In this document: positions 2,508 through 30,571 of the stretch, piece by piece
How the letters are laid out: the number at the start of each line of letters is the position of its first letter
How positions within the stretch are numbered: position 1 is the first letter of the stretch
Sequence record: OR449013
Strand: one strand, 5' to 3'
Length of the DNA stretch: 64,000 nucleotides
Source of the DNA: Escherichia phage Mangalyan
Program-made: the position numbers and the translations under genes
The notes under the pieces: generated by a model
Database searches by the model: none
What the model saw: only the letters and a program-made list of their open reading frames with translations
What the model was told of the DNA's origin: nothing

Positions 2508-2840
2508 TTAAAGTGCTTCCAAGGTGGATACTGATGGGTCGAACATGTTCAACCTTATCGGATCTACAACTTTTCCGCTTTTAGAGACGATGTTTTCTGC
2601 ATCCTCGTCCAGAGCCAGAACGTTAACATAAAACAATTCACTTTTCTCGCAAACCGGGTAGACAACCATGTTGCCAAATTCATCTTCGGCCTCATAAGTG
2701 TCTCCAGTCTCTGTGTAAATGAACCCGACAACCTCTACAAGAAGGGTGTTTTGCAACACCTCATTCTCGTAAAAGCCGATTTCGTCCATGAAACCGTTAA
2801 AATCCTCCCTGTCAGTAAACCCAAGGGTAAAAGTATTCAT
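2508..2840 (-). CDS. hypothetical acidic protein (possible fibre assembly factor)
   Basis: 110-aa acidic ORF immediately 3' of the 1479-aa fibre gene. Confidence 0.4.
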   Translation of the reverse strand: MNTFTLGFTDREDFNGFMDEIGFYENEVLQNTLLVEVVGFIYTETGDTYEAEDEFGNMVVYPVCEKSELFYVNVLALDEDAENIVSKSGKVVDPIRLNMFDPSVSTLEAL

Positions 2841-5800
2841 TATTCAACACTCTCCATCATAAGCTGGGTGTCTGTCAGTGCAGAGTTCCAAACTCTTATG
2901 TCCTTAATATGACCAAATAAGTGTCTTTCACCTGTCGCCGTTTGACCACCAATGCGGATGAAAGCGCCTCCTGCTAGGAATTCCCAAGAAGACTGCGTTT
3001 CCGTGCTCACCAGTCCGTTAGCAAAAGAGCAGGTTTTACCGTCATCTTTTATCCTGAACCCAATTTTCAATTTACGGGCTTTAGCCATCTCGTAAACACG
3101 TCTGTTTGACCCTCCAATATCACAGTATGGATAACCGTCCTTCGCAATATTTGTTGCAGAGCCAAACCCCATGATAAATGCAGCACCGGATTGATGACCC
3201 TCTGTATCAATAACCCTAGGGGCTGCGTTAGGAGCTTTGCCCCAGCCTCTCCAGTTGGCATCAACCGTAGCGGCGATAGTGAATGGTCTGGGCGCTAGGT
3301 TATCCGTCATTGGGAATTTACAAAGATCTGCCGCCCTGGTTACAGGTGAAGACCCTGTAGGGATAAACGAGGACTCACAAGATCCCAACTCAAACTGAGG
3401 TATTGCAACGTCAACCCAATCCCCTACGGCATGTTGAGAACTCTCCGGCGGGGCAATCTGGAACTGGCAACCGATATTCCTGTCAGAGGACACTGCCTCA
3501 AACGTAGCAACAACCCTTATCCAAGCAGGTCCGGCTGTTTGCCATCTCTCAGCTTTTACTTTAATTCTCCCCGCTGCAACACCTGTTGTTTTAACTTCAA
3601 GTGTTGACAGGTTAACATAAGCATCACCTTGAAATGTTGTGGTGGATCCGTCGTACATGTCGAATCTTATACGTAATCTCCGGTTCGCTTTACCTCCCCT
3701 TGCAATAATAGACCCAGTACAGAATTTCTCAGCACCTGTTACATCGGCACCTCTGGTGGCTGGAACTGTAGCAAGGTTTAACGCTGTTGTTTCCACACCG
3801 GATGCAGTGTTTACTGTAAATCTTGCACCTTTTGTGCCGTTGGTGTTTGTCACAGTACCACCAACAGTAATCTGTTGACTGGCTCCCCATTTACTAGGGT
3901 CTTCACTGTTAAGCATTAGGTTTGTCCTTTGCCCTTCAATAAGCAGACCATCTCTTTCAAAACGTGGTTGGTTTGCTTGTGCAACAGCCATAACACCACG
4001 CTTAGTGAAATAGGTTGCTGTAGAAGGTCTGGAGAAGACCATCTCACCTTCACCCAGTGCAGGTTTTAGGTTAGAGGTTAAAGGCAACCACAAGTCAGGC
4101 ATAACTGGAGCGGTGGTGTTTTCTGGGAAGCTTGTTCTCTTCCAAGGGCTCCAAGCCATTCCGCTGCCAAGGTTATTGTAATACCTTTCCCATGTTCCAC
4201 CAAGATACATTTTATATATCTGGATACAACCTGTTCCTTCGTTAGCGGAGTTTCTAAGAACGATCAGCGTACCAGCCATCTGCTGCCCTGGTGGGTAATT
4301 TCTTTCCGCTGTGGCGTTGGCATTTGCCTCTTGATGGTAAATCCCTTCACGATCTGCCTTGTAGTCGTTAAGGTCATTAGTTCCCAACCCTTGACCACGG
4401 TGCTGAATAACTTTGTTCCACGCTCTGTGGTTTCCCTGCTCTATGGAACGAGTGTACAGCTGATCTAAACGACCTGCCATCTGGAAAGCGTAGTTTCCAG
4501 AAAATGCCACAGACAACCCACCAACAACCATCGATCCTTCAGGTCCGTTGACATTGCCTGCCATTATTTTAGAAGGGTTGTTATTCCCGAACTGGTTGTT
4601 CCAGTCTGCACCTGTGTGGCATACAAAACCACCTGGTGCTGAGAAAGTACCATCCTTGTTGAAGTTGTAGAATCTATGAGCTGTGCCTACAACATCGCGA
4701 ACAATAACTTGACCCGCTTCCGGAGTAGATCTGAACTCTGCCTGACCTTTGAGACCAGCACCATTACCGCATTTAGAGGTAAACGTACCGTTAGTCAGAT
4801 CCTCTGTCCCATCGGATGCACACTGGAATCCTGCATTAGAGAATAACGCCTTTCTAGGACTGCCGTAGCACAAATAGTCAAGACCGTCTGCCCATAGCTC
4901 GACTTTTGGCATATTCATTTTGCTCATCACAGCATAGCGTTCAGCAGAACCTATATAGTGCCACTGTGTGCCGCCACCAGTGTAGAATCCTGAAGTACCT
5001 TTGAAGTCAACAATAGGTCTGGTATTGGTGTTGTTATCTCCAAGAATAGCAAGATTCAAATCTGCTGATTGAAGAGGTGCAACGAACTTAACCCCATCCT
5101 GATTGTTTGTTACAGAGCCGACTTGATAATCTTGCTCTCTGGTAAACACTTCGACAACATTTCTACTTGCGTATATGCTGACAGGGAAAGCACGAGCCTC
5201 TGCATAGAAAGCAACATACTCTTGTTTACCCCTTGTTGGAGCAACCATCCCAAGAAGTGCTTTTTCATTCTGGTAGAAATTTACTACCCCGTAGAAAGAG
5301 TCTCCCCTGTCCGTCCAGCCGCCAGTTCTATAGTGACACTGCAGGGTGGCACAGTTCATAGGGTCATTTCCAGATGAAGACCTGGTGACTATAGTAATAT
5401 CTGTACCTGTCGAATGGGCGTAATACGGATCTGTTCTAACGATGATTGGGTAGTATTTCCCATCTTCCATTCCTGCAGTTCTTGGCAGTGTTAAGAAGTC
5501 TTTTACACCTGCTGCTATAGGAACTTTGAACAGATTCTGAGCATCTGCTAAAGTTGTAGCCCCGGTGCCACCTGCGGCTTGAGGTAGAGGTTCCCACTTG
5601 GCCTTCCGGTTGTTATAAACACCCCATTCCAGAGTGCCGTTACCGGATTCGTCCATCTCACCATCCCAGATAACCATCTTGGCGGCTTTCTTGGACCCCC
5701 AGAAGCCTCTTTCTGCTCCTGAACTACGAATCCACTCTCCAAGTCCCCAGTTTGTCAGCTGACCAGTAAGATCCCCAACCTGCATGTATTTAGGACAGTC

Positions 5801-27257: not shown

Positions 27258-28379
27258 TTAGATAAAACGCTTAAACATAGAAGGTGATGAGATTGATGGA
27301 ATCACACAAGGAAGTGCTACCTCCTCTTTCTCCAGGAAATTAATCGCAGAAGCTACACAGTCGGCCCAGTCGTCTTTTCTGTTAAATGTTGATCTTTCCC
27401 CGTTGAATTTTTCAAGTTCAGTCAGAAATGCTTCCAAAGTATCAGGATGGAAACTGGATTTTACAATCCTCACCATTCCTTGTTGGGCAAGATTGGCAAA
27501 AGGTGAGAACCTTGTCAGTTTAGATTTGTTGGAAGGCATTGGGTCTTCTTCAACCCTAAACCCTTCGGCGAGCAAGGATCTGGAGGAGGTTAAGAACTCA
27601 CTCTTACCTGCCTGACCGGGGTCCACAGAGAATACGATTATACAATCATCACCATCAAACTGCGCCTGTTTCCTGATGATCACATCTCGTTCACCAGCCT
27701 TTTTACAAAACTTACCTTCCAGACCTGTGGAATACCTCCCGTCATCCACGTTCTCAGGACAATAATCACCGGACAGGTAATAAAAGCCGTCACTATCTTT
27801 ACTTACCTTAACACTGGCGGTAAAGTCAGGAAATTTATTACCGGAAGTTCTCTCGGTTCCTGCCTTATCCCATGCTCTGCAAGATACTGATCCAAGGGGT
27901 ACTCTATCGGCATCACGAAGGAAAGATCTTTGAAAATAGTTTGCACCCTCAGGCTTTGCAAACCAGTTACCATGGAGAAGCTGAGCTTTTTCCAGCTCTG
28001 GTAGACCTTCGAGGAAAGCAAGGTATTCTGGGTTGTCTCTCAAACAGACAGGATTATCGAATATTGTTGCGCCTATGAACGAGAATGACAACGGTCTTGG
28101 CTTGATCTCTACACCCAGTCCGTTAACCGTGGTGTATTTCTCTATCAACTCTTCCTTAGAGTCTCCCCAAATAAATTCACCGTCGCGTCGGATAAAATAT
28201 CTTTTCTTACCGCATTTCTCAGGATCTGGATACCCTTCATCGTCCAACCACCATCTAACCAGTTTGGCAAGCATGTGTTCTGAATCGGGGTTACAGCTGA
28301 TAACCATTCTTGATGGATACTTTGACTGAGATCGCAGACGAGACATCAGATAGTCTATCTGCTCCCATTCGAATTGTGT
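27258..28379 (-). CDS. terminase large subunit, exon 2 (nuclease domain)
   Basis: Frame continues terminase reading after the predicted intron; Asp-rich nuclease-domain motifs. Exon 5' boundary (28379) is predicted, not proven. Confidence 0.75.
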   Translation of the reverse strand, partial: TQFEWEQIDYLMSRLRSQSKYPSRMVISCNPDSEHMLAKLVRWWLDDEGYPDPEKCGKKRYFIRRDGEFIWGDSKEELIEKYTTVNGLGVEIKPRPLSFSFIGATIFDNPVCLRDNPEYLAFLEGLPELEKAQLLHGNWFAKPEGANYFQRSFLRDADRVPLGSVSCRAWDKAGTERTSGNKFPDFTASVKVSKDSDGFYYLSGDYCPENVDDGRYSTGLEGKFCKKAGERDVIIRKQAQFDGDDCIIVFSVDPGQAGKSEFLTSSRSLLAEGFRVEEDPMPSNKSKLTRFSPFANLAQQGMVRIVKSSFHPDTLEAFLTELEKFNGERSTFNRKDDWADCVASAINFLEKEEVALPCVIPSISSPSMFKRFI

Positions 28380-28698
28380 CGTTTATGTTCGGGCAAGGTC
28401 GCTAGTCTTGCCCCGCCATTTTCAGGCAGCTGCATGTCTCCATGCAGACCAGACTATATCTTATAAGCGACAAAAACCGCTTACCCTCCCGTTTCGAATC
28501 GCTTGATTCTACGTCTCTCGACTAGTCGTTGAACGTTCATCCTCTCGGATGCTTCGCTGCGGATTATCTAAATTAACACACTGTTACCATACCTTCGATC
28601 TCTCTTCGAAGCCTCTATAATGTTACCATGACAGGTTGGTGGTGTCAATAATAAAGATTTCCCCGCAATTAGGGAGGTTTTACGAGAGCTACAAATTA
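28380..28698 (-). ncRNA. group I intron (ORF-less) in terminase large subunit gene
   Basis: Minus-strand P (AATTGCGGGGAAA, 28656-28671), Q (AATCCGCAGC, 28551-28565), R (GTTCAACGACTAGTC, 28520-28534), S (AAGATATAGTCTGG, 28449-28462); P1 pairing exon GAGGGU with intron GCUCUC; in-frame TAA right after exon 1. Confidence 0.8.
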
Positions 28699-29124
28699 AC
28701 CCTCATCGAAGCAAACCATGGTGTACTCAAGCCCTTGGTGGTTAAGCTTATCTTGTACATACTCCATGTGGCAGTATTTTACAACAGCCCCCTTTTTGCT
28801 TCTATCCCACTTGCCAGTGTTCGGATCAAACCGTGGAAAAATGAACTTATGATCCTTCTCTCTGAACTTTGGCTTAATGTTTTCAGGCAGATCACTATAA
28901 ATAGCTACTGCTTTAGGCCATAGTCCACCCTCACCTTCCAACTGTGGGGTTGTTCTTCGGAACATAACCACAGAGCTGTGGGGGTCATCAATAATTTTAA
29001 GCGGCATCAACTGCAAGAGGAACGACTTGCCAGACCCAGCTGCACCGCCGATTACCAAAATATCTGCATCGTTTTCGAGGATCATCTTCTGCTTTTCAGA
29101 ACACGGTCCGTAAATCTTAGACAT
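28699..29124 (-). CDS. terminase large subunit, exon 1 (ATPase domain)
   Basis: Walker A GGAAGSGKS and Walker B VCFDEG; ORF terminates in intron. Confidence 0.8.
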
Positions 29125-30472: not shown

Positions 30473-30571
30473 GGTGCTAGGTGATGGAATCGAACCATCT
30501 ATGTATTCAACGACTACCTCGTCTATTTTCAGGATTAAAAATCCTCGCCCTTGCCAAAGGGCTTACCTAGC
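30473..30571 (-). ncRNA. atypical 99-nt tRNA-like gene (Lys-type UUU anticodon loop, ~30-nt variable region)
   Basis: Acceptor GCTAGGT/ACCTAGC, D-arm GCCC-TTTGGCAA-GGGC, anticodon loop TTTTTAA, canonical T-arm GATGG-TTCGATT-CCATC, but ~30 nt lie between anticodon stem and T-stem. Confidence 0.45.

Follow-up and report, generated by a model that had tools for sequence, protein, structure and literature searches.

The gene encoding the large terminase subunit (TerL) of the phage studied here is interrupted by a group I intron of 319 nt that contains no open reading frame (ORF), located on the minus strand at 28698..28380 of the window, i.e. the whole stretch of 64,000 nt from Escherichia phage Mangalyan that was analysed. 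The identity of this insert as a real group I intron in the TerL gene is confirmed by a covariance match, by the pairing of its helices across homologous introns, and by the uninterrupted gene of closely related phages. The window belongs to a Vequintavirus (an rV5-like coliphage), and its TerL locus is approximately 98% identical to those of naswa, RudolfGeigy, rV5 and others; an intron at this site has already been published and annotated for rV5-like phages. It is very probably a td-type group I intron, which would be spliced from a single pre-mRNA to give the mRNA of a 515-aa TerL. The gene is laid out as follows:

29124 to 28699, minus strand: TerL exon 1, aa 1-142, with Walker A (GGAAGSGKS) and Walker B (VCFDE), and the 3' end GAU GAG GGU.
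28698 to 28380, minus strand: ORF-less group I intron, 319 nt, assigned to the subgroup IA type (td-like), opening with an in-frame UAA and ending with a terminal G at 28380.
28379 to 27258, minus strand: TerL exon 2, aa 143-515 plus the stop codon, with the nuclease / RNaseH-like domain.

A previous reading of this DNA, made from sequence only, had described the terminase as two minus-strand pieces (28699-29124 and 27258-28379), the first with the Walker A motif GGAAGSGKS and the Walker B motif VCFDEG followed by an in-frame TAA, and all of these coordinates and motifs were found again in the ORF list and in the sequence itself. Exon 1 lies in a minus-strand ORF of 142 aa (28696-29124, ATG at 29124, motifs GGAAGSGKS and MVCFDEG), whose frame is closed by the TAA at 28698-28696, and the exon 2 frame on the same strand is open from 28382 to a stop at 27258. 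With the slash marking the cut, the exons join as GGU/ACA (...GAU GAG GGU followed by ACA CAA UUC...), and the predicted ligated RNA junction is GATGAGGGT joined to ACACAATTC. The spliced coding sequence comprises 1548 nt and its product 515 aa, in which the Pfam domain Terminase_6N covers aa 25-294, thus running across the junction, and Terminase_6C is also matched. The cut between the exons comes immediately after the DE of Walker B.

The insert matches the Rfam group I intron model RF00028 (Intron_gpI) at 28708..28430 on the minus strand, with 83.8 bits (gathering score, 50 bits), E = 7e-20 and model positions 1-253 of 253, so that the covariance search proposed earlier as a check did recover a full-length group I fold; in a scan of the whole 64-kb window this was the only group I match. 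The length, put at about 319 nt in the sequence-only reading, is exactly 319 nt, and the claim that the intron is ORF-less holds as well, since the ORF list has no ORF of at least 30 aa on the minus (coding) strand inside 28380-28698. The 5' splice site follows a U that is paired as U.G in P1, and the intron ends in G, a set of features well beyond what could arise by chance. It carries no homing endonuclease gene and therefore lacks the encoded endonuclease that is one mark of a mobile intron, and near-identical genomes differ in whether this one site is occupied. Three other readings, namely an intein, a group II intron and a programmed frameshift, were dismissed in view of the match at the RNA level and of the stop codon that stands at the boundary.

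Near-identical vequintaviruses without the intron were found by tblastn, using as query a 119-aa peptide that spans the predicted junction. The predicted spliced product agrees at 515/515 aa with the TerL that phage YN3 encodes without interruption, and intron-less TerL coding sequences of 1548 nt occur in YN3 and S127 BCL3, plus two uncultivated viral genomes (UViGs). Aligned with these alleles, the window has a 319-nt indel placed exactly at 28698..28380, and the junction ...VCFDEG/TQFEWEQIDYL... predicted from the window is encoded without interruption in these intron-less sister phages. As the uninterrupted TerL matches the predicted spliced product, the two splice sites are determined at nucleotide resolution. 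This includes the 3' splice site, which had been flagged as the least certain part of the structure: G28380 is the only G followed by an in-frame base downstream of the in-frame TAA at 28385-28383, and the frame and the intron-less alleles together settle it. The other nearby Gs considered as 3' splice sites (28390 and 28370) are out of frame or upstream of this TAA, and are excluded by the intron-less alleles.

The catalytic core contains the P, Q, R and S elements (AAUUGCGGGGAAA, AAUCCGCAGC, GUUCAACGACUA and AAGAUAUAGUCU) in this order and at or near consensus; their canonical arrangement, already recognised by the earlier reader, is borne out both by the Rfam alignment and by direct reading of the sequence. 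The helices are, in intron order:

28704 to 28684, minus strand: P1, formed by exon GAGGGU and intron UA (28704-28697) with the internal guide UAGCUCUC (28691-28684), from the Rfam alignment and direct reading.
28677 to 28672, minus strand: P3 5' strand CCUCCC, pairing with GGGAGG at 28485-28490.
28667 to 28558, minus strand: P4-P5 domain, with P4 as UGCGG (28667-28663) and CCGCA (28562-28558), and P5 as UCU (28657-28655) and AGA (28569-28567).
28654 to 28570, minus strand: P5 extension, 85 nt, found in vequintavirus copies only.
28556 to 28534, minus strand: P6/P6a hairpin, closing pairs CG..CG, then CAUCC-GAGA-GGAUG.
28527 to 28523, minus strand: P7 5' strand GACUA, within the R element, pairing with UAGUC at 28452-28456.
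28522 to 28513, minus strand: P7.1, GUC-GAGA-GAC.
28509 to 28496, minus strand: P7.2, GAAUC-AAGC-GAUUC.
28490 to 28485, minus strand: P3 3' strand GGGAGG.
28482 to 28465, minus strand: P8 hairpin, AAGCG-GUUUUUGU-CGCUU.
28456 to 28452, minus strand: P7 3' strand UAGUC, within the S element.
28447 to 28430, minus strand: P9.
28429 to 28413, minus strand: P9.1.
28412 to 28392, minus strand: P9.2.

The P1 helix had been proposed as exon GAGGGU paired with the guide GCUCUC, and it is found as such: 28704-28699 pairs with 28689-28684, with a U(28699).G(28689) wobble at the 5' splice site. P3 and P7 form a pseudoknot. P2 is absent from the intron in the Rfam alignment, and P10 is weak, with at most 3 bp (ACA with UGU). 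Folded alone, the 85-nt P5 extension is no more stable than shuffled sequence (z = -0.66), and comparison with other introns gives it no support.

Twelve helices of this fold (P3, P4, P5, P6, P6a, P7, P7.1, P7.2, P8, P9, P9.1 and P9.2) pair essentially perfectly in six homologous introns, which include T4-type td and mostly differ in sequence, and their strands follow one another in the same order in all six. When the introns were aligned with MAFFT over their full length, the 5' third of the window intron was misplaced, since this intron has no P2 and a long P5 insert; the introns were thus realigned without the P5 extension and starting at P3, pair counts were limited to the helices that stay in register (P3, P4, P7, P7.2, P9 and P9.2), and the variable hairpins were compared by explicit lists of their strands. 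In the count over these six helices, 95% of the cells hold standard pairs, a share that falls to 33-44% if the partners are displaced by 1-3 columns, and not one of the observed pairing measures was attained in 500 shuffles. Compensatory changes, altering both sides of a pair, were seen in 21 of the 34 pairs tested, including five of six in P3 and four of five in P7.2; the distant TerL intron of contig L023, for example, has GACCA/UGGUC as a compensatory P7. P7.1 and P7.2 are present in all six homologues with differing sequences, and sit where td has them, between P7 and the P3 3' strand.

P7.1/P7.2 assign the intron to subgroup IA, and as it resembles td it would be grouped with the classic IA2-type phage introns, IA2 being assigned by homology. 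Blastn aligns its nt 238-316 (79 nt, from P7 to P9.2 in the 3' domain) with T4-type td introns at approximately 82% identity, and its nt 162-270 with the T4 nrdB intron region at approximately 72%. The td intron of T4 (subgroup IA2) agrees with the window intron in its set of helices, P7.1/P7.2 and P9.1/P9.2 among them, in the style of its 5' junction (...GGGU/UAAUU) and in its 3' end (...GAACAUAAxG). It differs by its host gene, which encodes thymidylate synthase, by the presence of P2, and by an ORF in the P6 loop for I-TevI, whereas the window intron has neither P2 nor ORF and carries the 85-nt P5 extension instead.

Other homologues are the second TerL intron of RudolfGeigy and the introns of two distant TerL genes from IMG/VR contigs (L023, positions 2795-3065, and L024, positions 2840-3099), which are ORF-less, td-like group I introns in TerL sequences of 33-35% identity. 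One of them sits between the D and E codons of Walker B and the other nine codons upstream, while the window intron is inserted after DEG; with these td-like introns lying within about 10 codons of DE, the Walker B region of TerL appears to be a recurrent intron target. Outside the vequintaviruses, the closest relative by blastn is an intron of Pseudomonas phage PA7 (72% identity over intron nt 130-316), which differs by a P2-like 5' region, by the absence of a P5 extension, and by its gene and phage family (phiKZ-like). This ORF-less group I intron (NC_042060.1, 1399-1705; Rfam, 84.2 bits) is unannotated in the record and sits between ORFs annotated as RNA polymerase beta subunit and RNA polymerase, which are probably exons of a single gene.

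Group I introns are spliced through a standard two-step pathway. The TerL gene would be transcribed as one pre-mRNA, within which the intron would fold into the P1-P9.2 ribozyme; an external guanosine would then attack after U28699, held in P1 by the guide GCUCUC, and the freed 3'-OH of exon 1 would attack after the terminal G28380, thereby ligating the exons into an mRNA to be translated into the 515-aa TerL. TerL is essential for packaging, and splicing would be obligatory for it, since an unspliced RNA stops at the UAA that opens the intron and would yield only a 142-aa ATPase fragment. Membership of the group I family, together with the viability of many isolates that carry the same allele, points to this chemistry and to splicing in vivo, which the viability of these phages already implies. 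A search of the Vequintavirus literature for splicing experiments on the rV5-like TerL intron, whether by RT-PCR, by RNA-seq or in vitro, found none.

Could the intron be excised in vivo only with the help of a host or phage RNA chaperone, or of a maturase-like factor? This is rather unlikely, considering that its core and peripheral helices closely match those of td, which self-splices in vitro, and that it contains no maturase-like ORF, even if the weak P10 and the large P5 extension without support would be compatible with such a dependence. Several Bastillevirinae introns are spliced in vivo only (PMC11878797), and with such in vivo-only splicing on record among phage group I introns, strictly protein-independent self-splicing is not guaranteed.

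It is highly improbable that the insert remains unspliced and that TerL is produced as two polypeptides, an N-terminal ATPase and a C-terminal nuclease, that assemble after translation in the manner reported for the split NrdA of Aeromonas phage Aeh1. Exon 1 does end in an in-frame stop, the exon 2 frame offers an ATG at 28346, and unspliced split genes have been cited (PMC7344957); but the insert has the full core of a ribozyme, with covariation, and a cut right after the DE of Walker B would divide a single ATPase domain. Moreover, this ATG is separated from the 3' splice site by 11 codons of conserved coding sequence, which in intron-less alleles directly continue exon 1, and the GGGAG located approximately 15 nt upstream of the ATG would be poorly spaced for a ribosome-binding site. 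A decayed and inactive intron remnant in a TerL pseudogene can practically be discounted: the lack of a homing endonuclease gene would fit a late stage of the classic cycle of intron gain and loss, but the catalytic-core elements are at or near consensus, all helices are intact, and an intron 97-99% identical is kept in many independently isolated, plaque-forming phages in a gene that they cannot do without.

Junction-specific searches of the phage collection retrieved the exon-intron junction in 52 records and the uninterrupted junction in 64. TerL is without intron in YN3, S127 BCL3 and L010. The ORF-less 319-nt intron is present alone in the window, JohannBauhin, naswa, magaca, LL12 and slur16, these five phages having a layout of exon, 319-nt intron and exon identical to that of the window, with point differences of about 2% only. 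A third form, of 883-884 nt and bearing an endonuclease VII gene, is found in HdK5, JES2013, DrSchubert and UViGs L011 and L012.

The intron of HdK5, JES2013 and DrSchubert occupies the same insertion site and has the same ribozyme outside P8 as that of the window. In the endonuclease-bearing copies, the P8 hairpin is swapped for a 586-nt segment with an endonuclease VII ORF (Pfam PF02945, E = 2e-21), closed by a different stem (GAAUGUG/CACAUUC) that contains the AUG of this ORF. As P8 is replaced rather than extended, the window copy is not a simple deletion derivative of an endonuclease-bearing copy. In HdK5 (L004, 1005-1887), the stop codon of the endonuclease ORF lies inside the P7 3' strand, and the P3 3' strand GGGAGG is at the position of a ribosome-binding site. 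Ribozyme folding and endonuclease translation should thus exclude each other, since the signals of the ORF overlap P3, P7 and the P8 stem. The HdK5 copy and those of L011 and L012 are not reported by Rfam at the gathering threshold because the ORF splits the core, and their identity with the window intron was established by direct alignment.

TerL of these phages has a second intron site, which is empty in the window:

28063 to 28062, minus strand: empty second TerL intron site, after aa 248, inside an Ile codon.

This site is filled by a 979-nt intron with an HNH endonuclease gene in rV5, HdK5 and L016, and by a 268-nt ORF-less intron in RudolfGeigy. The rV5 gene therefore contains both introns, the first at the same site as that of the window, of 319 nt and ORF-less, and the second, 979-nt intron after aa 248.

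The synonymous exon bases that flank the first site are linked to its state: the junction is GGT/ACA in all seven intron-containing alleles and GGC/ACG in all four intron-less ones (11 sequences), and the ends of the matches in the junction-specific record searches fit this pattern. The linkage could be explained equally well by the need for a U at position -1 for splicing, by co-conversion, or by target-site immunity. Having no endonuclease gene, the window copy would not promote its own spread; its propagation would presumably depend on recombination between co-infecting phages, or on the endonuclease VII gene of sister copies acting in trans. The intron endonuclease gp210 of phage PhiPA3 has been shown to act as an interference weapon against a competitor (PMC11620839). 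By extension, the base linkage and the approximately 45:55 split of the two states might reflect an ongoing contest between co-infecting vequintaviruses, with intron-less alleles being 'immunised', endonuclease VII copies serving as weapons against the terminase of competitors, and the ORF-less copy of the window as a protected, endonuclease-resistant allele; such a scenario is distinctly unlikely.

Introns in the TerL gene of this group are documented in the description of rV5 by Kropinski et al. 2013 (Virol J 10:76; PMC3606486), which includes a section entitled "Introns in terminase", reports a TerL in three segments with a homing endonuclease in one of the introns, and thanks D. Shub for intron location. 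The RefSeq entry of rV5 (NC_011041) has a three-part join named 'ORF64ABC', spanning 1548 + 319 + 979 nt. Similarly, the announcement of LL12 (PMC6658697) describes TerL and the DNA polymerase gene as disrupted by predicted introns, and BASEL records annotate joins for JohannBauhin (span of 1548 + 319 nt) and RudolfGeigy (three parts). Group I introns are also found in large terminase genes of unrelated phages, the likeness considered here being that of the interrupted gene: splicing was shown by RT-PCR for the TerL intron of Pectobacterium phage CB7 (PMC7344957), TerL introns are known in Bastillevirinae, with splicing shown experimentally in SIOphi (PMC11878797), and a terminase intron was described in Lactobacillus phage LL-H (Mikkonen & Alatossava 1995).

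Many deposited vequintavirus genomes nevertheless list each TerL exon as a protein of its own, 'terminase-like' or hypothetical, without a join; this is the case for HdK5, the GenBank versions of slur12/16, the O157 typing phages and the phiWec phages. The host labels of some records look doubtful as well: 18 'Campylobacter phage' entries (MG0656xx, including C2, C15, A12a, A116, A13b and A14x), labelled as phages of Campylobacter jejuni, share 97-98% identity with rV5-like coliphages in TerL, in the intron and in the tRNA region.

A tRNA-like gene of 97-99 nt is located in this tRNA region, at 30473-30571 on the minus strand, between tRNA-Thr and tRNA-Ser. It is matched by the Rfam tRNA model with 37.5 bits (gathering score, 29) and has a normal cloverleaf. 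Its anticodon loop reads UUUUUAA, in which the Rfam alignment places UUU as the anticodon, and its variable arm, of about 30 nt, is unusually long; ARAGORN reports the gene as 'tRNA-???' with a 4-base anticodon. The gene is kept in 119/119 vequintavirus records with inconsistent annotation, being unlabelled in rV5 and labelled elsewhere as tRNA-Lys, tRNA-OTHER, tRNA-TERM or tRNA-???(atcc).

Taken together, the window intron opens no new question, and its value is in part one of annotation: gene callers split an essential packaging gene whose correct product is a single 515-aa TerL. It adds one more td-like intron to those that target the catalytic motifs of phage DNA-metabolism genes. The series of states at this locus (empty, ORF-less, endonuclease-bearing, and with a second site) would offer a convenient system in which to study how introns home and are lost, in a phage genus with therapeutic use.
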